A program made the translations under genes and the position numbers. The notes beneath the pieces are model-generated. The model was not told where the DNA came from. It was given only the letters and a program-made list of their open reading frames with translations, and searched no databases. DNA of 64,000 nucleotides from Candidatus Doudnabacteria bacterium. Lineage in GTDB: Bacteria; Patescibacteriota; Doudnabacteria; UBA920. Below are positions 3,109 to 59,554 of this stretch, piece by piece; positions within the stretch are counted from its first letter, which is position 1; each line of letters starts with the position of its first letter. Location: the NCBI GenBank assembly GCA_963837465.1, contig CAWINB010000001.1, positions 75,915 to 139,914 of the forward strand. Direction: 5' to 3'.

Positions 3109-3143
3109 AGCTTAGTGTCAAGGGTCACCCTTGACACTAAGCT
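3109..3143. terminator. palindromic hairpin (16-bp stem, 3-nt loop) between convergent dus and CYTH genes; repeated element
   Basis: AGCTTAGTGTCAAGGG-TCA-CCCTTGACACTAAGCT. The 25-bp core AGTGTCAAGGGTCACCCTTGACACT recurs identically at 22359-22383. Confidence 0.6.
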
Positions 3144-3814: not shown

Positions 3815-3919
3815 TACTGACCTTTAACACATAGCTTAATAATCAGATGTGTCGCAAACTCTATAAAATCAAGCAGTTTTGATTAACATCTCTATTAACT
3901 TAAGTGTTAAAGGTCAGTA
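3815..3919. mobile_element. 105-bp MITE-like repeat, copy 1
   Basis: Terminal inverted repeats TACTGACCTTTAACAC / GTGTTAAAGGTCAGTA. Near-identical full copy at 34198-34302 and 3' half at 59455-59497. All are intergenic. Confidence 0.6.
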
Positions 3920-3954
3920 GATTCTGCGGTTTTACGTGGTGTCCGCAAGCTCTG

Positions 3955-14063: not shown

Positions 14064-15014
14064 CTAAAAATCCGTTTGACTTTTAAAATCCTTAAGTCTT
14101 TGCTTAATATCTATGACTCTGATTTTTTGTAGTCGTCTGGTGCCAAGTCTTTCACAACAAAAACTGGCCAGTGCAGAGCCGTAAGCGCAGGCTTTTTTTA
14201 GGTTCTTCCACGAAGTATTATTTGTCTTTGCCAAATACCCCATAAACCCTCCCGCGAAGCTGTCGCCGGCGCCGGTGGGGTCGATGACTTTTTCCAGGGG
14301 GTAGCCGGGGAGATGAAAAATTTGGGATTTTTGGAACATCATCAGGCCGTATTCGCCGCGTTTGATGATGAGTGTAGGGGCTGGCTTTAGCCGCCCGTCA
14401 TCATTGGAAAGCGGGCGGGCAAGCCCGGCCCCTACAGTTCGCATAATCTTTTTGGCGGCTTTAATTAAATTATGTTCTCCCGATAGCTGTCGTGCTTCGG
14501 AATCGTTGATAATAAAAACATTTACCAGTTTTAAAACTTTGGCCAGCTGTTTGGGCGCGCTTGATATCCAAAAATTCATTGTATCCAGCCCCACAAATTT
14601 TGGTTTATTTATCTGGCTTAAAACTTCCAGCTGCAAAGAGGGGTGGATGTTGCCCGAAAAAATGTAGCCGGCTTTGGTGTGGCGGGGGAGTAGTCGGGGT
14701 TTAAAATTTTCAAAAACATTTAAGCGGGTAAATAAAGTTTCGCGGCTGTTTAAATCAAAACTGTACTCGCCGCCCCAGGCAAAGGTTTTGCCGCTTTCGG
14801 TTTGCAGGCCCGAAATATCCGCGGCGCCTCCAAGAATTTTTTTATCGGCCGCCGCAAAATCATTCCCCACTACCGCTACAAGCATCGGCTTTATAAAAAA
14901 CCTTGCGGCCAAAGAAAAATAAGTGGCGCTGCCGCCCAGCGCTCTCTTAACTTTGCCAAAAGGGGTTTTAATGCTGTCGTAGGCTACGGACCCGACGATT
15001 AAAAGGTTATTCAT
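14064..15014 (-). CDS. PfkB-family carbohydrate kinase (ribokinase-like)
   Basis: N-terminal GSVAYD and C-terminal DPTGAGDSFAGGF PfkB signature. Contains the in-frame palindromic insert at 14374-14435. Confidence 0.8.
   Translation of the reverse strand: MNNLLIVGSVAYDSIKTPFGKVKRALGGSATYFSLAARFFIKPMLVAVVGNDFAAADKKILGGAADISGLQTESGKTFAWGGEYSFDLNSRETLFTRLNVFENFKPRLLPRHTKAGYIFSGNIHPSLQLEVLSQINKPKFVGLDTMNFWISSAPKQLAKVLKLVNVFIINDSEARQLSGEHNLIKAAKKIMRTVGAGLARPLSNDDGRLKPAPTLIIKRGEYGLMMFQKSQIFHLPGYPLEKVIDPTGAGDSFAGGFMGYLAKTNNTSWKNLKKACAYGSALASFCCERLGTRRLQKIRVIDIKQRLKDFKSQTDF
14374..14435. repeat. GC-rich palindromic element (RPE-like) inserted in-frame in the PfkB kinase gene
   Basis: 24-bp arms GTAGGGGCTGGCTTTAGCCGCCCG / CGGGCGGGCAAGCCCGGCCCCTAC around a 14-bp centre. 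Same left arm and similar right arm at 38180-38263. Confidence 0.7.
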
Positions 15015-15239: not shown

Positions 15240-16757
15240 TTACCCCATGCTGTGCCTAAGAACAGCAGCCTGCTCAATCAGGTTCGTTAATCCGCGGCCG
15301 GTTTTTAAGTTTTGGTGGATTTTCGCGGAAATTAACTGGTGTTCCTGTTCGTTTAGGTATTTGGGCTTAAGCGGTTTGCCCAGGTATTTTTCTATTTCCT
15401 CCACGTCGCGCAAAATCTCTTTCCAAGCCGGGGATTTTTTGGCCAGGTTTATAAGCCCGGGTTTGTATAAAAATTTTCCCGCGAAATATAAATCGTGTTT
15501 CAGATTAATGTAGTATTTTTCCATAAGATGCAATTGTCCGGCTTCGCGCGCGGCCGCCAAACCCCGTCCGGTGCCTATAAGCTCCGGCGGCACGCCCAGC
15601 GAATAAAGCGCGGCGGTAAAGCTGATGGCGCGCGGCAGTTTAACTTTGCCCATGCCCCGGCTGTAGCCGAACAGGCCGATGTGCTGGACGCGTTCGCGGC
15701 GTTTGGGCAAATGTCTGGCCAGCTCATTTATCGTTGGGGCGATTTTTTCCACGCTGCCGCGGTAAGCGGCTTCAAATGGCTTTATGGTTTTAACCAAATC
15801 CGCCTCTTCGCCCGCGGTTATGTCCGCCGCCTGTCCTTTGGGCAACCCCGCCTCCAGAATTTTTATCGCTTTTATCACAACGGCTTTGGGGTAATCATAA
15901 CGAAAAGCGCTTTGAATAGTTACCGTCCTTATGCCTTTGTACTCCTGTAAAAATCTTTCGGGCCTTAAAGGATACAAACCGCCGCGAAAAGGCAAAGCCC
16001 CGCAGCCAATTACCGGGTAAAGTTTGATGTTATGCTTTTTGGCGAATTTTTTGTAGCGAGAAAGCGCGATTTTAATGGCCAGCACGGTCGGAACCAGACC
16101 GGAATTTAGCGCCGGATCCGAACGGGCCACGTAAGGTCTTAAATACGGCGTTGAGGATTTGAATTTTCGTCCGCGCAGCCGCAAGTATTTTTCCAAAATC
16201 CGGTCGGAGTTGATAATCGTGCCGACCTGTTCAAATAAAGGAACTATCAGCACTCCGTCCAGCAGCTGTTTTTCAAACCGGTTTAAAGGGTGTTTAAGCG
16301 ACGCGATTTCCGCGAAAGCTTCCTGGATATCTATCATTTCCTCCGCGCTTTCCGTCATCGGTAAAATCACCTCAAACAGCGGGGGGCTGTGCATGCCGAC
16401 CTGCTTGGCCAAACCGGCGGCGCTTAAAATCCCCATAAGCGCGCGTCCCATCCTGAATTCCGTTTCCACCTTGGGGTTCGGTAAACGGAAGGTCAAAAAT
16501 TTTTCTTTGCCTATTGGATGCTTTTTAAAAAAGTCGTATTTTTCGCTGAACAATCTTTCCAATACGGACTCGTCCACTAACTTGCCTTCCCAGTCCCACT
16601 TGTACTCCGAAATGCCCAAATCTTTAAAAGATAAAAACAATTCCCCGGCTTCGTCCATAGTGGAAATAAAAGCGTCTTTTTTCCAAAACGGCGGGCCGGC
16701 GTGATCCGGATGCTGCGTGGCCATGGTGGCCGGAATTTTTCTGTGTGCTTTTTTCAT
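15240..16757 (-). CDS. ppcA: archaeal-type phosphoenolpyruvate carboxylase
   Basis: N-terminal IPATMATQHPDH matches the archaeal-type PEPC MSTQHPDN motif. ~505 aa, typical for this family. Confidence 0.8.
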   Translation of the reverse strand: MKKAHRKIPATMATQHPDHAGPPFWKKDAFISTMDEAGELFLSFKDLGISEYKWDWEGKLVDESVLERLFSEKYDFFKKHPIGKEKFLTFRLPNPKVETEFRMGRALMGILSAAGLAKQVGMHSPPLFEVILPMTESAEEMIDIQEAFAEIASLKHPLNRFEKQLLDGVLIVPLFEQVGTIINSDRILEKYLRLRGRKFKSSTPYLRPYVARSDPALNSGLVPTVLAIKIALSRYKKFAKKHNIKLYPVIGCGALPFRGGLYPLRPERFLQEYKGIRTVTIQSAFRYDYPKAVVIKAIKILEAGLPKGQAADITAGEEADLVKTIKPFEAAYRGSVEKIAPTINELARHLPKRRERVQHIGLFGYSRGMGKVKLPRAISFTAALYSLGVPPELIGTGRGLAAAREAGQLHLMEKYYINLKHDLYFAGKFLYKPGLINLAKKSPAWKEILRDVEEIEKYLGKPLKPKYLNEQEHQLISAKIHQNLKTGRGLTNLIEQAAVLRHSMG

Positions 16758-22349: not shown

Positions 22350-22358
22350 TCGGCAGTT

Positions 22359-22383
22359 AGTGTCAAGGGTCACCCTTGACACT
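22359..22383. terminator. second copy of the 25-bp palindromic terminator element
   Basis: AGTGTCAAGGGTCACCCTTGACACT, identical to 3114-3138. Confidence 0.55.
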
Positions 22384-34197: not shown

Positions 34198-34302
34198 TAC
34201 TGACCTTTAACACATAGCTTAATAATCAGATGTGTCGCAAACTCTGTAAAATCAAGCATTTTTGATTAACATCTCTATTAACTTAAGTGTTAAAGGTCAG
34301 TA
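34198..34302. mobile_element. 105-bp MITE-like repeat, copy 2
   Basis: Near-identical to copy 1 (2-3 substitutions). 17-bp terminal inverted repeats CTACTGACCTTTAACAC. Confidence 0.6.
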
Positions 34303-34477
34303 GGATGGGGAAATGCGTACTACGAGCGCAAATTCTAATCTGAAGTGCAATCGCCGGCCCAGCCAATTAAAACTGTTACCAAGACTTTAGCGGGTAGCTC
34401 ATAAATGGGTTACTTATTAAGGGGTGGTTCAATTCGGCCATGTTTCTTATTTTTACTATCTTTGGTATAATAAACTC

Positions 34478-36682: not shown

Positions 36683-36697
36683 GAAGGAATTGCACGG

Positions 36698-37135
36698 ATG
36701 AACACGGATAGGAAACAGATTAACACGGAGTTGCTGCACGAAGATTTGACGTACCAAATCCGGTCGGCAATTTTTGAGATAGCTAATAAGTATGGGAAGG
36801 GTTTTAAAGAGAGTATTTACCAGGCGGCGTTAGCCGAAGAGTTCGCCAAACGCAGTATTCCTTTTGAGTCACAAAAACGCATCACAGTTTATTCTTTAGA
36901 TACTGGCAAACCCCTGGGTTATTATATCCCGGATTTTATAGCTTACGAAAAAATTATTATAGAGATAAAAGCCACAGATTTTACGACAGACCAAAATATT
37001 GAGCAAGAGCTGTCTTATCTGCGAATAAGTACTTACGAGATTGGGATTTTAGTTAATTTTAATGCCCGCAAACTGGACATCCAAAGACTCATATTTACCA
37101 ACGACCGCAAGCTATTTTTGAAAAAAATACTCTGA
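36698..37135 (+). CDS. GxxExxY-family protein (PD-(D/E)xK nuclease-like)
   Basis: GFKESIY is the GxxExxY motif. 145 aa. Bounded by 18-bp terminal inverted repeats. Confidence 0.7.
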   Translation: MNTDRKQINTELLHEDLTYQIRSAIFEIANKYGKGFKESIYQAALAEEFAKRSIPFESQKRITVYSLDTGKPLGYYIPDFIAYEKIIIEIKATDFTTDQNIEQELSYLRISTYEIGILVNFNARKLDIQRLIFTNDRKLFLKKIL

Positions 37136-37154
37136 TCCGTGTTAATCTGTTTCT
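36712..37154. mobile_element. GxxExxY nuclease gene cassette bounded by perfect 18-bp terminal inverted repeats
   Basis: GAAACAGATTAACACGGA at 36712-36729 and its reverse complement TCCGTGTTAATCTGTTTC at 37137-37154. Shorter AACACGGAT / ATCTGT units flank both sides. Confidence 0.55.
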
Positions 37155-37193
37155 TATCTGTGTTTATCTGTTACAAATACATTATATTGTCCT

Positions 37194-37642: not shown

Positions 37643-40600
37643 ATGGAAAAACTGCTGGACAATCTCAATAAAGAACAGCTTTCCGCGGTTACCCATAGGG
37701 ACGGGCCGCTTTTGATAGTGGCGGGAGCCGGGACGGGAAAGACCACGGTTATTACCCGGCGGATAGCTTATTTAATAGAACAGGGATTGGCCAAGCCCGA
37801 TGAAATTTTGGCGCTAACGTTTACGGACAAAGCCGCCGGGGAAATGCAGGACAGGCTGGCGCAGTTGTTGCCTCTGGGCTATTACGATATGTGGATTTCC
37901 ACGTTCCACAGCTTTTGCCAGCGAATTTTGGAACAGCACGGGCTGGATATCGGCCTGCCCGGGGACTTTAAACTGCTCAATAAGGCGGGCGCCTGGATAT
38001 TAATTTACAATAATTTGCAGAAATTTAATTTAAATTACTACAAACCGCTGGGCAACCCCAATAAATTTATTTCCGCTTTGCTTAAGCATTTTAGCCGGTG
38101 CAAAGACGAGCTGATAACTCCGGAGGCCTATTTGGAGTACGCGCGGGAACTGAAGCTGTCTACAGATGTAGCCGAAGGTGTAGGGGCTGGCTTTAGCCGC
38201 CCGCCTCCTGATGACGGGCCGCGCGGATCTTCTTTACGGGGCGGGCAGGCAAGCCCAGCCCCCGCGGATCCCAATATGGATCCAGCCGAAACACTTCGAA
38301 TAGAAGAAATTGCCAACGCTTTCCATATTTACGAAAAACTCCTGCTGGACGGCAACTTTTTGGACTTTGCCAACCTGATTAATTACACAATAAAACTTTT
38401 TGAAAAACGCCCGCAAATTTTAAAACACTACCGGGAAAAGTTTAAATATATTATGGTGGATGAGTTTCAGGATACCAATTTGGCGCAGTACGAGCTGATT
38501 AAAATGGTTGCCGGCGGCGGATTACGCAGCGTTCCCGCTTACGGGGCGTCCCCGGATGCCGATAAATCCGCGCGCCACACCCCATCTGCCAACCTCGTAG
38601 TCGTGGGCGACGACGACCAATCCATTTACAAATTCCGCGGCGCGTCCGTTTCCAATATTTTAAAATTCCAGGAGGACTACAGCCCACTCAAACAAACCAG
38701 TTTGGTGGAAAATTACAGAAGCGGCCAGGAAATTTTGGATTTGGCTTATGACTTTATCCAGTCCAACAATCCCGAGAGGCTGGAAGTTAAGTTAAAAATC
38801 AATAAAAGACTTAAAAGCCAAACGAAGGAAAAATCTGTTATTGAGGTTTTGGAAGGCAAGGATTTGGTTGAGGAACTTAATTTTGTCGCCAAAAAAATTA
38901 CGGAACTGAAATTGCAAAGCCAAAAAAGCACCTGGAACGATTTTGCCGTTTTAATAAGAAGCAATTCCGCGGCCCGCGAACTGTTGCCGGTCCTGGAAAA
39001 GCACGGCATCCCGCACACGTTTGTGGCCAATACAGGACTCTACAACAAGCCTTTTATTTCATTGCTGATTGCTTATTTGGAATGTCTGGACAATTTTCAC
39101 GACTCTTTTGCCTTGTATCGCGTGCTTTCGTTTGGCGAATTTAATATGCCGCCGGAGGACTTGGCGCAGGTTCTGGCCAATTCCGAAAGAAAAACCTTGT
39201 CTTTATACGAAATGCTCGGCAAAGCCGAAACTTTGCCGCAAATAGGGGGGAAGTCGCAAAAAATAATTCAAAATATTATTTTGCTTTTAAACCGGCACGC
39301 CGCGGTGGCCAGAGAAAAAGCGGCTAATGAAGTCTTTATCCAGATTATCCGTGATTTAAAACTCGACCAATGGCTGGAGGAGGATAATTCGCAAAACGCG
39401 GAAAACCGCGAGCTTTTGGAGCAGTTTTATAAAAAAATTGAAACTTTTGTGGCGGAGAATGTCGATAAAAGCCTGCATAATTTTTCGCATCTGCTCAATT
39501 TGGAAATAGAAGCCGGTGACGAAGGGCAGATTAAATTTGACCCGAACTTAGGCCCCCAAAGCCTTAAAATCCTTACCGTGCATTCGGCCAAGGGCTTGGA
39601 ATTTGAATATGTTTTTATACCCAACATGGTTGACCAGCGCTTTCCCACGCGGGCGCGCGGCGAACAAATAGAAATTCCGGCGCCGCTTATAAAAGATATC
39701 CTGCCGGAAGGGGATTTCCATCTCCAGGAGGAGAGGCGGCTGTTTTACGTGGCCGTAACCCGGGCAAAATCCCATTTATACTTGTCCTGGAGCAAGGATT
39801 ACGGCGGCGCCAAAACCAAAAAGCCTTCGCTGTTTTTGCAGGAGACCAAACTGGTGCCCGGGGAACATACTTCCCGGGCCACGGGAAAAGTATTTTTTCG
39901 GGGCAGCTCGAAAAATCAGGTGGTTTACAAATTTTTACCCGCGACTTTTTCTTTTTCCGCTCTCAAAGCTTTTGAAAACTGCCCGTTCCAATACAAATAC
40001 CAGTACTACCTAAAATTGCCCTGCCCCGGCAGCGCTTATTTCAGCTTTGGCCAGACAATGCATAAAACCTTTGAGTTGTATTTGAAAGATTACGCGGCCA
40101 GAAAAAGCCAGAGCCAGCGGGATTTATTCGCCAAGACATCCGCCCAAGCCGAGCCGGGCGATTTTAAATTTTTGGAAAAACTTTACCAGGACAGCTGGGT
40201 GGATGAGTGGTATAAAGATAAAAAGCAAAAAGAAGATTACCGCGAAAGAGGCCGCCGGCTTTTAAAGATTTTTTACGAAATTTCGCGAAAAAACCCGCCG
40301 AGCCCCAAATACCTGGAAAAGTCTTTTTACCTGCCTCTGGGGAAATATAAATTTACCGGCAAAATAGACAGAGCGGATTTTGTAAACGGCGCCCTGGAAA
40401 TCATTGATTACAAAACCAGCGAAAAAATACCGAAGCAAAATGACAAGGACGGACTGGACCAGTTGTATGTTTATCAGTGGGCGGCCCAGGAATTTTTGGG
40501 GGAAAAAGTTTCTGCCCTAAAGTACTGGTATTTGAACGAGGATAAGTTTCTGCCGGAAAAAATCGCGTCGGACCCGGAAATCCGGGAATTAAAGCAAAGG

Positions 40601-40735
40601 CTTTTAAAAAGCATTGAAAATATCGCGGAAACCATCAAATACGACCGTTTCGCCCAAGCGCACGAAAATACCAGGGAACACCAATGCCAATTTGAACATT
40701 GGGAAATCCATGGTTTGAATTTAAAAATAAACTAA
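37643..40735 (+). CDS. UvrD/PcrA-family SF1 helicase with C-terminal RecB-like PD-(D/E)xK nuclease domain (AddA-like)
   Basis: Walker A GAGTGKTT, DEFQDT, VVGDDDQSIY and the helicase C-domain. C-terminal CPFQYKYQYY and IIDYKTS nuclease motifs. In-frame GC-rich palindromic insert at 38180-38263. Confidence 0.85.
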   Translation: MEKLLDNLNKEQLSAVTHRDGPLLIVAGAGTGKTTVITRRIAYLIEQGLAKPDEILALTFTDKAAGEMQDRLAQLLPLGYYDMWISTFHSFCQRILEQHGLDIGLPGDFKLLNKAGAWILIYNNLQKFNLNYYKPLGNPNKFISALLKHFSRCKDELITPEAYLEYARELKLSTDVAEGVGAGFSRPPPDDGPRGSSLRGGQASPAPADPNMDPAETLRIEEIANAFHIYEKLLLDGNFLDFANLINYTIKLFEKRPQILKHYREKFKYIMVDEFQDTNLAQYELIKMVAGGGLRSVPAYGASPDADKSARHTPSANLVVVGDDDQSIYKFRGASVSNILKFQEDYSPLKQTSLVENYRSGQEILDLAYDFIQSNNPERLEVKLKINKRLKSQTKEKSVIEVLEGKDLVEELNFVAKKITELKLQSQKSTWNDFAVLIRSNSAARELLPVLEKHGIPHTFVANTGLYNKPFISLLIAYLECLDNFHDSFALYRVLSFGEFNMPPEDLAQVLANSERKTLSLYEMLGKAETLPQIGGKSQKIIQNIILLLNRHAAVAREKAANEVFIQIIRDLKLDQWLEEDNSQNAENRELLEQFYKKIETFVAENVDKSLHNFSHLLNLEIEAGDEGQIKFDPNLGPQSLKILTVHSAKGLEFEYVFIPNMVDQRFPTRARGEQIEIPAPLIKDILPEGDFHLQEERRLFYVAVTRAKSHLYLSWSKDYGGAKTKKPSLFLQETKLVPGEHTSRATGKVFFRGSSKNQVVYKFLPATFSFSALKAFENCPFQYKYQYYLKLPCPGSAYFSFGQTMHKTFELYLKDYAARKSQSQRDLFAKTSAQAEPGDFKFLEKLYQDSWVDEWYKDKKQKEDYRERGRRLLKIFYEISRKNPPSPKYLEKSFYLPLGKYKFTGKIDRADFVNGALEIIDYKTSEKIPKQNDKDGLDQLYVYQWAAQEFLGEKVSALKYWYLNEDKFLPEKIASDPEIRELKQRLLKSIENIAETIKYDRFAQAHENTREHQCQFEHWEIHGLNLKIN
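38180..38263. repeat. GC-rich palindromic element (RPE-like) inserted in-frame in the helicase gene
   Basis: Left arm GTAGGGGCTGGCTTTAGCCGCCCG is identical to 14374-14397. Right arm is GGCGGGCAGGCAAGCCCAGCCCCC. Encodes VGAGFSRP...ASPAPA between helicase motifs. Confidence 0.7.
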
Positions 40736-42172: not shown

Positions 42173-43669
42173 ATGGATGAACAAACCCAACCAGAATCTC
42201 CCACCCAACAGCCGAGCTCTCCCCGGCAGGATTACGTTTTTTTTAACGTCATGCCCAAAGTTAAGTCGGCGGAGCTTGTCCAGCCTTTAATTAAAGTGGA
42301 ACAAGCTGTTGACTCTTCCCCGGGCGCTCCCGAAAGCAAATTTAAGGAGAGCTTAAAAAAATACAAATGGTACTTTATTATAGGGGCAGTTGTTCTTGTC
42401 GGCGGAGCCCTTACTTACTTTGCGATACTTAAATTCGGGGTTCAGTCTTATAAAACCAGCGGCCTCCTGCCGCCAGTTCCCGCGCGCTCCCTGGTTAAGT
42501 CGGCCAGCGGCACGGCCCAGAGCGCGGCGGCGCTCGGCGCTGATTTTACCACGCCCCAAGCCTGGCGCGACAAATATTTTCCCGGCTGCGCCGATCCCAG
42601 CATTTGCGGCGACAACGCCGATCCGGACCATGATGGCTTAACCAACCTTGAAGAATACAAGCTGGGTACGGATCCCAACAATCCCGACTCAGATCAGGAT
42701 GGCATAGCGGACGGCGATGAGGTCCATGTGTTTGGCAGCAACCCCTTAAACTCGCGTACCTCGGGCAATCCAAAATATTCGGACAGCGACTATATTAAAG
42801 GCAGTTACAATATCATAAGCGGCAAAAAAATGAACGCCGCCGACATTGCGGCCATAACCGCCAAAATGAAAACTTTTGGCCTGCACCAGCCGACGCTGAC
42901 AACTTTAGGCGACATTTTAAACACCGTTTATAACTTCAGTCCGCCTTCGGGCTCAGGATTGCCCGCGCCGCCCCCAATTCAGGGAGCGACATCCACAGCC
43001 AGCTCAACGGCTACGTCGACCGCTTTAAGCGGCGGCAGTGTAGATGAGTCGGTTGAAGCCAAGCAGTCCCGCGACGCGCGAAGGTCCGATACCATACAAA
43101 ATATAGAAATAGCCCTGGTCCAATATCAAAGCGCCAATAACAGCTATCCGGCTACAAACGATTTTAATACCATGGTCGGCGAGGTTAAACCTTATCTGAA
43201 AATAGCCACCGATTCCACGGATCCCATTAACCAGCCTCCGTACGTTTATTCCTATGTTTCCAATGCCAGTTCCTCGGACTTCGCGCTGTCTTTTTACAGC
43301 GAAGTCGCGGCTCAGATTATAACCAAGAACGCGGCCGATGCCCAAAAAGACGCGGCCGCCGCGCAGGCGGCAGTCTATGACAACCAAAGGGAGATGGATC
43401 TGCAAAGTCTGCGCCAGGCTTTATTGCTTTATTCCGACAATAATGTAGCCGGCGGACAGACCTATGTTTTCCCTTCGGCTGCCAACTATCAAACCGCCCT
43501 GGTTCCCAATTATATAGAGTCCATTCCCAAAGACCCGAAGACCGGCTCCGATTATGCCTACAATGTCTCCTCCACTTTTAATACGTTTACCTTAAAATCT
43601 GTGCTTGATGACCCTCCGCCAGGCGCTGCCGGCTATACGTGCGACCAGGACGGGTGCCAAAATTATTAA
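42173..43669 (+). CDS. membrane-anchored protein with Asp-rich Ca-binding-like repeats and pilin-like C-terminal repeats
   Basis: TM helix. DPDHDGLTNLEEYKLGTDPNNPDSDQDGIADGDE is thrombospondin-type-3-like. Two C-terminal repeats resemble pseudopilin domains. Confidence 0.45.
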   Translation: MDEQTQPESPTQQPSSPRQDYVFFNVMPKVKSAELVQPLIKVEQAVDSSPGAPESKFKESLKKYKWYFIIGAVVLVGGALTYFAILKFGVQSYKTSGLLPPVPARSLVKSASGTAQSAAALGADFTTPQAWRDKYFPGCADPSICGDNADPDHDGLTNLEEYKLGTDPNNPDSDQDGIADGDEVHVFGSNPLNSRTSGNPKYSDSDYIKGSYNIISGKKMNAADIAAITAKMKTFGLHQPTLTTLGDILNTVYNFSPPSGSGLPAPPPIQGATSTASSTATSTALSGGSVDESVEAKQSRDARRSDTIQNIEIALVQYQSANNSYPATNDFNTMVGEVKPYLKIATDSTDPINQPPYVYSYVSNASSSDFALSFYSEVAAQIITKNAADAQKDAAAAQAAVYDNQREMDLQSLRQALLLYSDNNVAGGQTYVFPSAANYQTALVPNYIESIPKDPKTGSDYAYNVSSTFNTFTLKSVLDDPPPGAAGYTCDQDGCQNY

Positions 43670-43708: not shown

Positions 43709-46141
43709 ATGAAATTTTCCCTGAACCTTTTAAAACAGTTTGTAAAAATTGATATGGAGCCGGAAAAACTCGGACAGCTTTTAACCGAGAAGGCTTTTGA
43801 AGTGGAAGAAGTAACCGCGGTTGGCGGCGGGGATTTTGGAAATATTACGGCTGCGAAAGTTTTGGAAGTTGCCAAGCACCCCAACGCCGACAGGCTCAGG
43901 GTTATTAAACTTGATGTCGGCGGGGGGAAGATTGTTTATCCGGTCGTCTGCGGAGCTTTTAATTTTGGCCCTGGAGACATAGTGGCTCTGGCGCTGCCCG
44001 GCGCCAAAATCGCCCAAAATATCCACTCCAAAAGCCGCGAAAGTTTTATTCTGCGAAAAGCCACTATAAGGGGCGTGGAAAGCCAGGGAATGATTTGCGC
44101 CGCTTTTGAACTTGGTTTGGAAAATCAGCCGGGGGAGGGAATTATGCTGCTGAAAAAATCCGTAGCGGCCGGCGCGGCCCTTGCCGAAGCCCTTGATACC
44201 GGCAGCCGGGACCGCGTGCTGAACATCTCTCTGCCGGCCAACAGGAGCGATTTATATTCCCATTTGGGAGTGGGGAGGGAAGTGGCGGCGGTGACCGGGG
44301 CAAAGTTAAAAGTTGAAAATAAAAAGTTGAAGCTTCCCAAAACGTCCGAAAATTTTAAAATTATTGTCAGGAGCAAACAACTCTGCCCAAGGTATTATGG
44401 CGTAAGGATGTCGGTAAAAATTGGGCCGAGCCCCGGGTTTATCCAGGACGTTCTTTCGGCTGTGGGCATGAGGCCGATTAACAATGTCGTGGATGTAACC
44501 AATTACGTAATGATGGAATTGGGCAACCCCACCCACGCCTTTGACGCTAAATTCGTTAAGGGGGATATTGTGGTCAAGACCGCCGCTGAGAGTGAAAAAT
44601 TTTTGGCTTTAAACCATAAAGAATATAAGCTAAGCTCTGATGATTTGGTCATTGCCGACAGCGAGAAAACTTTGGGCCTGGCCGGAATTATCGGCGGCAA
44701 GGAAAGCGAAATCAGCGAAACTACGGCTGAAATAATTTTGGAAGTGGCCAATTTCCAGGCACAGGGGATTAGAAAAACTTCCAAGAGGCTTGACATAAAC
44801 ACGGAAGGCGGCAGAATGTGGGAAAAAGGAATTCATCCCAGACTTGCCGAGCTTGCGCTTGCCCGCTGTCTTGAGCTGCTGCAAAAATATGCCGGCGCTG
44901 ATGTTTTGGAATTCGCCAAGTTTGAATCGCCGGTAAAACCCGCGGCCGCGATAAAATTCAGCGCCTCCGACATCAACAACCTCCTTGGGACGGGATTTAG
45001 CGCCAAAGAAATTCAAAAATATTTGCTGCGTTACGGAATTATCTCCAAAATTGTAAATTCTAAATCCGGAGTTTTAAACAGCGCTCCTCCCTGGTGGCGG
45101 ACCGATGTCGGCACGGTTCCCGATTTGGCCGAAGAAGTCCTGAAGCTTTACGGGTACAACAAGGTCAGGCCGGCGGCTTTGGCAATAACAGGATCATCAA
45201 TCAAGCCGGCAAATCCGGAAGACGGAGTTTACGAAACAAAAAACTTTTTCGCGCTGCTTGGTTACGCCGAGGTCCAGAATTATAATTTTGTTTCCCAAAA
45301 GGATATTGCCGCTTTTGGCGCCGGCATTAAAGATCATGTGGAAATCCGGAACCCGCTTTCCGAAGACCAGCGCTATTTAAAAAAATACCCGCTGATTTCG
45401 ATCTTAAAAAATATTGAGCTTAACCAAAAGCATTTTAGCGGCTTTAAAATTTTTGAAGCGGGAAAACAATATTTTGATTTTGGGAAAGAACCCCGAGTTT
45501 TACTGGCTGCCAGCTTTAGTAAGCTGGAGGCCGCTGAAAAACTTTTAATGAAAATCAAGGGCGACGTTTTGGAATATCTTAAGTCTTTGGGCATTAACGA
45601 TGTCCAATTCAAAACGGACGAAAACCCCGCCCGGCTGAGTTTAATAACAGGGGGTGTTTATGCCGGTGGAATTGGTTACGCCAGCGAAGAGCTGAAAAAA
45701 AACTTTGGGGTAGAGGGTCAGGTTGTTTTTGCGGAACTGGAGCTGGAACAAATTCTGCCTTTAAAAAAGGCCGTGGTTTATGAACCAATCAGTAAGTTGC
45801 CAAGTGTTGAGAGGGATATTTCCATGGTAGTCGACGAAAAAGTTAAATGGTCAGACATCGGAGTTGCGGTCAGCCCATTTATGGGCTCATTAAAAGCGAA
45901 AACTGATGATAAGTCCGGCGGTTATAACCTTGAGTTATCCCTTTTTGAGGCCCCATTTTTGGCCCACGACAAAGAGACGTTAAAATTCCATCAGGAACTG
46001 GCTAAACAGGGCAAAAAGAATTTAGGCATAAGGCTTTTATTTAAGCCAATAAACCGCACCATGACAGACCAGGAAATTGCTGGAATTTTAGACCAAATTG
46101 TGCTAAAATTACAGCAGGAAATAAAGGCAGAAATTCGCTAA
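43709..46141 (+). CDS. pheT: phenylalanyl-tRNA synthetase beta subunit
   Basis: N-terminal tRNA-binding domain (KHPNADRLRV), B3/4 and B5 domains. 810 aa. Confidence 0.9.
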   Translation: MKFSLNLLKQFVKIDMEPEKLGQLLTEKAFEVEEVTAVGGGDFGNITAAKVLEVAKHPNADRLRVIKLDVGGGKIVYPVVCGAFNFGPGDIVALALPGAKIAQNIHSKSRESFILRKATIRGVESQGMICAAFELGLENQPGEGIMLLKKSVAAGAALAEALDTGSRDRVLNISLPANRSDLYSHLGVGREVAAVTGAKLKVENKKLKLPKTSENFKIIVRSKQLCPRYYGVRMSVKIGPSPGFIQDVLSAVGMRPINNVVDVTNYVMMELGNPTHAFDAKFVKGDIVVKTAAESEKFLALNHKEYKLSSDDLVIADSEKTLGLAGIIGGKESEISETTAEIILEVANFQAQGIRKTSKRLDINTEGGRMWEKGIHPRLAELALARCLELLQKYAGADVLEFAKFESPVKPAAAIKFSASDINNLLGTGFSAKEIQKYLLRYGIISKIVNSKSGVLNSAPPWWRTDVGTVPDLAEEVLKLYGYNKVRPAALAITGSSIKPANPEDGVYETKNFFALLGYAEVQNYNFVSQKDIAAFGAGIKDHVEIRNPLSEDQRYLKKYPLISILKNIELNQKHFSGFKIFEAGKQYFDFGKEPRVLLAASFSKLEAAEKLLMKIKGDVLEYLKSLGINDVQFKTDENPARLSLITGGVYAGGIGYASEELKKNFGVEGQVVFAELELEQILPLKKAVVYEPISKLPSVERDISMVVDEKVKWSDIGVAVSPFMGSLKAKTDDKSGGYNLELSLFEAPFLAHDKETLKFHQELAKQGKKNLGIRLLFKPINRTMTDQEIAGILDQIVLKLQQEIKAEIR

Positions 46142-59435: not shown

Positions 59436-59554
59436 CACGGATCTACGAATACTATTTTGATTAACATCTCTATTAACTTAAGTGTTAAAGGTCAGTAAGA
59501 TCAGTAGGTATCTGTAGATCCGTTTTCAATCCGTATACCCGCGTTAAATTTATT
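59431..59554 (+). promoter_or_regulatory. conserved structured intergenic module (copy B) containing a partial MITE copy (59455-59497)
   Basis: AATTAACACGGATCTACGAATAC ... [MITE 3' half] ... GTATCTGTAGATCCGTTTTCAATCCGTATACCCGCGTTAAATTTATTATGTAT. Flanking inverted repeat CGGATCTAC / GTAGATCCG. Confidence 0.5.

Follow-up and report, generated by a model that had tools for sequence, protein, structure and literature searches.

Two protein-coding genes of the window, by which we mean the whole 64-kb stretch of DNA that was analyzed, carry related GC-rich palindromic segments: a gene for a sugar kinase and a gene for a helicase with the Pfam domains UvrD-helicase, UvrD_C, and PDDEXK_1 (Table 1). 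The closest proteins to the helicase are found in metagenome genomes of Patescibacteria/Candidatus Doudnabacteria. In the window scan, the 24-nt sequence GTAGGGGCTGGCTTTAGCCGCCCG occurs without mismatch in both genes, each time on the + strand, and the 64 kb contain no third match with three mismatches or fewer (shuffled sequences lead to an expectation of 0). The preliminary description had given the left arms as identical over 24 nt; the identity even reaches 26 of 26 nt, starting at 14372 in pfkB and at 38178 in the helicase gene. It had also mentioned a related right arm. Inverted partners are indeed present in both genes, but the helicase partner shows three differences from the arm pattern and has lost its terminal CTAC. 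The pfkB element is intact and has the 62 nt first attributed to it. For the helicase element, two values have to be corrected: the arms are separated by 38 nt (38204–38241) instead of 34, and the element, with the layout GTAGGGGCTGGCTTTAGCCGCCCG/38-nt center/CGGGCAGGCAAGCCCAGCCCCCGC, spans 38180–38265 instead of ending at 38263.

Table 1. Host genes in the window and parts of the two palindromic elements
Feature	Position	Strand	Remarks
PfkB-family sugar kinase (316 aa)	14064..15014	-	Insert at residues ~194–214; loop short in most orthologs
Intact sister copy in pfkB	14374..14435	+	Arm A 14374–14397, spacer TCATCATTGGAAAG, inverted arm B 14412–14435
UvrD/PcrA-type helicase fused to PD-(D/E)XK nuclease (1030 aa)	37643..40735	+	Insert at residues 180–211; from Pfam and the PcrA alignment
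Putative REP arm A	38180..38203	+	GTAG followed by hairpin GGGC-T-GGCT-TT-AGCC-GCCC-G; read as VGAGFSRP; from the exact 24-mer and hairpin covariation
Spacer CCTCCTGATGA	38204..38214	+	Matches the canonical family spacer (approximately TTTCCGATGA or CTTACTGATGA)
Possible decayed third arm CGGGCCGCGCGGATCTTCTTTAC	38215..38237	-	Tentative assignment
Putative REP arm B-prime	38242..38265	-	GCGGGGGCTGGGCTTGCCTGCCCG on the minus strand; tag GTAG changed to GCGG; one stem pair broken

In the helicase center, CCTCCTGATGA adjoins CGGGCCGC, the opening of an inverted arm; after it lie about 15 degenerate bases, GGGG, and the B-type arm. The first 8 nt of CGGGCCGCGCGGATCTTCTTTAC match the start of an inverted arm, and TGATGACGGGCCGC agrees with TGATGACGGGCGGC of the pfkB copy at 13 of 14 positions. 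Judging from these matches, the helicase copy may be composite and partly decayed, with a doublet whose second arm has degenerated and a further single arm. As RNA, the pfkB copy is predicted to fold very stably (-48 kcal/mol, z = -6.2); for the helicase copy, the fold does not surpass those of shuffled sequences (z = -1.3).

Searched with a generic arm pattern, the window yields only the four known arms, and the remaining matches with 3–4 mismatches looked like chance. Four GC-rich islands (1716–1810, 15530–15607, 42452–42575, and 44155–44230) were considered as further copies and rejected as ordinary coding sequence; an alanine-rich stretch in one of them presumably corresponds, by eye, to a hinge of the ribosomal protein L7/L12 type. 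A scan of the whole window at Rfam gathering thresholds gave only two tRNAs and no family matching the element.

The inserts at the protein level

Both copies lie within open reading frames. The pfkB copy is read on the minus strand, within the sugar kinase ORF, as VGAGLARPLSNDDGRLKPAPT. The helicase copy is in frame and encodes VGAGFSRPPPDDGPRGSSLRGGQASPAPA, with VGAGFSRPPPDDGPR as the predicted insert-derived peptide. Such peptides are rich in Gly, Ala, Pro, and Arg, follow the form VGAG(F/L)(S/A)RP...G(R)..APT, and are predicted to be disordered loops. The helicase insert had been placed between the ATP-binding and DEFQDT regions, and it does lie between the Walker A region and DEFQDT. In the alignment with PcrA (1pjr), helicase residues 167–221 correspond to PcrA 165–171, so that ~48 residues are extra; a second extra segment, residues 290–317, corresponds to PcrA 240–245. 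Among 120 helicase orthologs, the number of residues ahead of DEFQD varies from 152 to 212, and the spacing from DEFQD to GDDDQSIY is 27 residues in most of them (range 25–78).

In the AlphaFold model of helicase residues 1–686, pLDDT falls below 50 at 177–188 and 191–208, which covers the insert, and again at 294–313, which covers the second one; both segments are flanked by confidently modeled helices and strands. The PfkB model has a mean pLDDT of 94.3; over residues 192–213, modeled as coil, the block means are 82 and 60. Both inserts are therefore predicted as low-confidence coil amid parts modeled with confidence, which we read as a floppy surface loop.

Architecture of the arm and of the doublet

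The 24-nt arm has the form GTAG-GGGC-N-NNNN-TT-NNNN-GCCC-G, or, as a pattern, GTAGGGGC-N5-TT-N4-GCCCG. It consists of a GTAG tag, a conserved outer stem (GGGC/GCCC), a 1-nt bulge, an inner stem of 4 bp whose sequence varies while its strands stay complementary, and a TT loop. The search pattern imposed no complementarity, and partner arms were retrieved with the inner positions left free. Over 34 distinct arms, the GTAG columns (1–4) are conserved at 90% or more. In the same 34 arms, 91.5% of the cells are paired, and double-sided changes number 42, against 17.3 +/- 3.0 in shuffled sets (0/500); when the partners are slid by 1–3 columns as a control, pairing falls to 30–52%. The inner stems observed are GGCT/AGCC, GGGC/GCCC, GGCC/GGCC, GCGC/GCGC, GAGC/GCTC, AAGC/GCTT, and GACT/AGTC.

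With few exceptions, the arms converge in pairs whose GTAG ends point outward, with 4–21 nt of spacer between them. We collected 38 distinct convergent pairs, mostly with spacers of 4–15 nt, and both window copies are of such form. The inner stems usually differ between the two arms of one pair and the stem of each arm covaries on its own; hence the single hairpin is taken as the structural unit and the pair as the mobile one. For the same reasons, and with the helicase fold no better than shuffles, one long palindrome was set aside as the primary structure. A spacer motif (approximately TTTCCGATGA) recurs beside an A-like arm in unrelated genes and genomes. This shared motif, together with the asymmetric pairing of the arms, argues that the doublet would travel as one piece. 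The 6-nt flanks of the 38 doublets contain no direct repeats indicative of a target-site duplication; often, a T precedes GTAG and an A follows CTAC, which lengthens the palindrome.

Distribution of the family

In a scan of a genome collection, the exact 24-mer occurs in six other species-level genomes labeled Doudnabacteria, Patescibacteria, or Saccharibacteria, and the degenerate arm pattern identifies 40 metagenome loci. Beyond the window, the family thus comprises 46 loci, in Patescibacteria-type genomes and metagenomes, and mostly intergenic: ~28 of ~44 nonduplicate units lie outside long ORFs. The two window copies, being intragenic, are exceptions of a sort that PMC3733652 describes. 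There are two doublets in the 64-kb window and two to three on each of three short contigs (L005, L014, and L024). Viral contigs scanned with the family pattern gave zero matches and, therefore, no sign of a phage vector.

The remaining ~16 of the ~44 units fall within long ORFs, invariably in the frame GTA-GGG-GC.; this number includes host ORFs without Pfam confirmation, at least one of which (L007) looks spurious. Hosts confirmed by Pfam are LepA, ValRS, ATP synthase gamma (with two copies within the one gene), a GT4 glycosyltransferase, RF2, Lgt, Der/EngA, and GatB. At locus L001, the host is orthologous to the window helicase, as recognized from its sequence and not through Pfam, and the host protein of L030 and L036 has no Pfam match. 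The insertion site is the same within the pair of GT4 orthologs (L019/L043) and within the pair of proteins L030/L036.

The preliminary description spoke of a mobile, frame-preserving palindromic element. The presence of the same element in unrelated genes, in intergenic DNA, and beside RAYT genes agrees with mobility, but the element is a doublet and not a single palindrome, and the preservation of the frame appears, from the sequences, to be mainly an effect of survivorship. GTAG gives a TAG stop in the second frame, and the CTT-TAG of the A arm gives a stop in the third. Because these stops close the other frames, and since unit lengths (52–63 nt) are not multiples of three and most units are intergenic, the frame would act mainly as a survival filter. 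The 59-nt length class is overrepresented in genes, with nine of 14 coding copies against three of 21 intergenic copies (Fisher p = 0.004), and the T or A that often flanks the element brings the length to 60 nt.

Recurrent use of one site in the helicase

The signature VG(A)(G/A)(L/F)(A/S)RP is present in 6/120 helicases, including that of the window, and always at the same codon; the L001 helicase additionally carries the element at that codon. In PfkB it is found in 2/120 orthologs. Neither PcrA nor 114/120 helicase orthologs have the insert. Conservation in homologous helicases, which would speak against an insertion, is thus seen in part, since five of the 119 others and L001 have the element at that codon. 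On a neighbor-joining tree of the conserved columns, the carriers fall into at least four separate clades, and the nearest relatives of the window helicase (71–77% identity) are without the element.

In the DNA of three carrier helicases, the doublet begins right after the same Gly codon (GAA/GAG-GGT/GGC), and the arms differ: A ... B-prime in the window, a GCGC-like arm plus A in L001, and a GCGC-type arm plus a GGCC-type arm in L051. With at least four clades and differing arm subtypes at an identical codon, the distribution speaks for repeated insertion and against an ancestral segment. In other orthologs, unrelated GC-rich palindromic peptides occupy the same two helicase loops and two PfkB loops. 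The simplest reading of these sequences is that helicase and PfkB loops tolerate insertions and that old inserts may be overwritten. Occupation of the same codon might also stem from an old insert being replaced or gene-converted, and not from fresh insertions, and it is possible that the helicase site is a sequence-specific target; a GTAG already present in the host codons (E-G-V-G) may be such a target.

RAYT genes flanked by the same arms

A RAYT gene flanked by the same arms is a hallmark of REP–RAYT systems. A RAYT profile, for which the RAYT/TIRYT alignment of PMC3733652 (Additional file 5) served as the source, matched four of the 1,941 six-frame ORFs of the window and related loci, and none of the four is in the 64-kb window. 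The RAYT-like ORFs are bracketed on both sides by arms of the family (L024/L029/L047–L049, L046, L016, and L050). The protein of L024/L029/L047–L049 (P0241) scores 30.3 bits with Pfam Y1_Tnp (cut-off 23); its HUH motif reads NHFHG, and its catalytic Tyr falls within REYICNN; the L016 copy is without the catalytic Tyr. Distant homologs of P0241 (34–45% identity) bear the JGI name "REP element-mobilizing transposase RayT." In L047–L049, one doublet lies 35 nt upstream of the RAYT ATG, a second overlaps the stop codon, and a further arm follows downstream. In L050, single inverted arms are present at both ends of the gene, and L046 and L016 are similar.

The RAYT genes have housekeeping genes as neighbors (for example, SHMT, Sua5, SecA, and GatCAB) and occur as one copy per contig wherever seen. 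Close RAYT homologs are mostly on short contigs. The RAYT-bearing contigs belong to organisms other than that of the window, and among the 120 matches listed (102 further matches exist) no RAYT homolog shares the 699,532-bp contig with the window helicase. Since the window contains no transposase gene, the helicase copy may no longer be mobile. The genome of the window itself may hold only relics.

Origin of the helicase segment

Given the covarying, GTAG-tagged arms and the RAYT genes bracketed by them, the helicase segment is, with good probability, an intragenic GTAG-tagged REP doublet, REPIN-type and non-autonomous, of a family dispersed in Patescibacteria/CPR genomes. By analogy with the characterized REP/RAYT systems, a Y1 HUH transposase (RAYT), supplied in trans, would recognize the hairpins on single-stranded DNA, and the association with RAYT suggests that the doublet would be cut-and-pasted or copied as a unit. 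Insertions in genes would survive only where a tolerant surface loop, a net length that is a multiple of three, and a frame avoiding the TAG stops (GTA-GGG-GC.) combine. The helicase copy would be older or compound, with an intact A arm, a canonical spacer, possibly a decayed arm, and a B-type arm minus GTAG. No pair of empty and filled sites within one population was recovered.

Several other origins can be weighed against the REP doublet. That the segment is an ancestral, vertically inherited helicase loop with a function at the protein level, its likeness to pfkB being convergent or due to low complexity, has in its favor the related peptides at the same codon in five other orthologs and L001, as well as the wide conservation of "EGV" just ahead of the insert. 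We consider it highly improbable: the 26 identical nucleotides are in an unrelated gene and read there on the opposite strand, intergenic copies exist, the closest orthologs have no insert, arm subtypes and order vary among orthologs, and the region is predicted disordered. Selection for the in-frame hairpin as an mRNA device (translational pause or RNase target), or for the peptide as a module, would account for the stability of the pfkB fold and for the recurrence of copies in translation-related and other housekeeping genes; the poor fold of the helicase copy, the sporadic occupancy among orthologs, the unrelated palindromic families filling the same loops, and the lack of an Rfam match leave very little room for it. 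A classical MITE, with terminal inverted repeats, a DDE transposase, and target-site duplication, is likewise short, itself non-coding, dispersed, and ended by inverted repeats. Here, however, each such "terminal repeat" is itself a covarying GTAG-tagged hairpin, the flanks of the 38 doublets show no direct duplication, and the associated gene is Y1 HUH and not DDE, which makes this origin very unlikely.

Spread or homogenization could also have needed no dedicated transposase (recombination, gene conversion between copies, or hairpin-driven template switching would do), or a RAYT could have been domesticated together with hairpins serving the host, with coding copies as by-products. Such roles would be, for example, in mRNA stability, termination, or supercoiling. 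The window without RAYT, the predominance of intergenic copies, and the host roles of REPs discussed in PMC3733652 are compatible with this explanation, and the different arm combinations, in both arm orders, at one helicase codon are what conversion would give. The conserved spacer and the asymmetric arm pairing across unrelated loci imply, on the contrary, movement of the whole unit, and the RAYT genes have these arms on either side; we hold this explanation to be unlikely.

Beyond the REP doublet itself, the evidence is evenly balanced on whether Patescibacteria/CPR have an active REPIN–RAYT system that, alongside at least two or three further families of GC-rich palindromes, repeatedly remodels the same permissive surface loops of essential housekeeping proteins. 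The proteins in question are the helicase, PfkB, ValRS, RF2, ATP synthase gamma, LepA, Der, and GatB. If it does, a process like that of the Rickettsia RPEs would operate in a second, unrelated group with reduced genomes and would be a general source of lineage-specific insertions in CPR proteins. CPR bacteria have very small, streamlined genomes. The parallel with Rickettsia suggests that scarce intergenic space in reduced genomes pushes elements into tolerant protein loops. REP/RAYT in CPR, with copies read through in essential genes, would extend the known range of such elements and account for odd Gly/Ala/Pro/Arg-rich inserts in CPR alignments (e.g., VGAGLARP...GRLKPAPT). The element could serve as a strain-typing marker, and it flags insertion-tolerant loops. 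With RAYT homologs mostly on short contigs, it may also explain fragmented assemblies.

Comparison with known systems

The architecture of the doublet has the characteristic features of GTAG-tagged REPs and REPINs (PMC3337134, PMC3733652). With the GTAG REP/REPIN–RAYT systems of Pseudomonas, E. coli, and other bacteria (PMC3116915, PMC3337134, PMC3733652), it shares a short, GC-rich hairpin that is imperfect, has a T-rich loop of 2 nt, and bears GTAG at its base. Also shared are the inverted pair with GTAG outward, the short spacer, copies dispersed over related genomes, and, in related contigs, a Y1 HUH gene flanked by the same hairpins. Unlike in those systems, the host here belongs to Patescibacteria/CPR, about a third of the recovered copies are intragenic, the inner stems mostly differ between the two arms of a doublet, and the DNA of the window is without RAYT. 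In the library searched, we found no literature linking REP, REPIN, or RAYT with Patescibacteria or CPR.

GTAG REPs, their head-to-head (HH) dimers, and intragenic dimers encoding 20–30 aa are already published, and many of the intragenic dimers are in repair genes, UvrD/Rep helicases included (PMC3733652). The intragenic GTAG REPs of, for example, Opitutus terrae and Pseudomonas putida (Di Nocera et al. 2013, PMC3733652, Additional file 3) are, like ours, read through in frame over ~20–30 residues, with VGAG... peptides in P. putida. The hairpin family and the phylum differ, and here orthologous loops are hit repeatedly, also by other palindromic families.

Two other classes of mobile elements are less close. 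IS200/IS605 elements share the Y1 HUH transposase acting on single-strand subterminal hairpins and the lack of target duplication, but they are autonomous, with tnpA between the ends, whereas the doublets here are non-autonomous. Bacterial MITEs (Correia/NEMIS, RUP) share the small size, the dispersal, the non-coding nature, and an occasional fusion to ORFs; their terminal inverted repeats, target-site duplications, and DDE transposases were not seen here.

The Rickettsia RPEs are likewise palindromes that sit in frame in functional and often essential genes of a bacterium with a reduced genome, and they are translated into additional surface peptides. To our knowledge, no dedicated transposase is known for them. 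Part of the RPEs, RPE-4 and RPE-6, have been equated with CGTC-tagged REPs, and RPE-1 is a longer palindromic insertion (PMC3733652); as to the tag, RPE-4 and RPE-6 have CGTC versus GTAG here, so that, going by the published tag types, the likeness is one of behavior. The element of the helicase gene is thus a lineage-specific addition to a known kind, that of the intragenic GTAG REPs, analogous to the Rickettsia RPEs, and the lineage is new.

Inserts in the helicase and PfkB loops

The helicase that carries the REP doublet (37643-40735, + strand) contains a second GC-rich insert with inverted repeats, placed between DEFQDT and GDDDQSIY and encoding GGGLRSVPAYGASPDADKSARHTPSA. At this insert, the protein has ~22 residues more than PcrA (1pjr), with low pLDDT; no further copy occurs within the window. 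Related peptides (RSVPIYG...ADKSARY) are found in loops of the PfkB orthologs P0152, P0183, and P0196 and, therefore, the insert belongs to another palindromic family. Protein alignments of orthologs of the helicase and of PfkB (14064-15014, - strand) contain, in the same loops, at least two more families of palindromic-looking in-frame inserts (TSPRPSP.KGRE in one; ...RRHSE.V....DPSAALGMTP / LAPRND in the other). In both proteins, the loops concerned seem to be hot spots of a general kind.

Other elements of the window

Upstream of the helicase, a PD-(D/E)XK_3 ORF, tightly enclosed by inverted repeats, is flanked by NYN and PIN_3 genes. In L051 (the contig of another carrier helicase), Pfam recognizes no PD-(D/E)XK gene in the NYN–PIN_3 interval, and none at the corresponding position of the related contig L052, where just one unannotated ORF (85 aa) is present. 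Since both contigs are without a Pfam-recognized counterpart there, the ORF and its repeats may constitute an inserted cassette.

An AT-rich 106-nt repeat with inverted ends of 27-32 nt (TACTGACCTTTAACACATAGCTTAATA ... TATTAACTTAAGTGTTAAAGGTCAGTA) is unrelated to the GC-rich REP element. It occurs twice at full length, with 98% identity between these copies, and a third time as a half copy. The 27-nt hairpin could be a shared terminator or another small repeat.

Coordinates of the additional features
Feature	Sequence	Position	Strand	Remark
Inverted repeats	window	36694-37171		36 nt, 89% complementary
PD-(D/E)XK_3 ORF	window	36698-37135		145 aa
Second helicase insert	window	38510-38595	+	
AT-rich repeat	window	3815-3920, 34198-34303, 59455-59501		106 nt
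Perfect hairpin	window	3114-3140, 22357-22383		27 nt, TTAGTGTCAAGGGTCACCCTTGACACT, identical at both sites
REP doublets	L014	1841-1901, 2021-2079		ATP synthase gamma-subunit gene
RAYT homolog	L016	360-936	-	REP arms on its flanks

The REP family on related contigs

On L014, a single gene contains two REP doublets, both in frame and separated by 120 nt. In the RAYT homolog of L016, the catalytic Tyr is replaced by Asn (TRENIVNN vs. REYICNN in the homolog P0241), and this homolog may be an inactivated copy.
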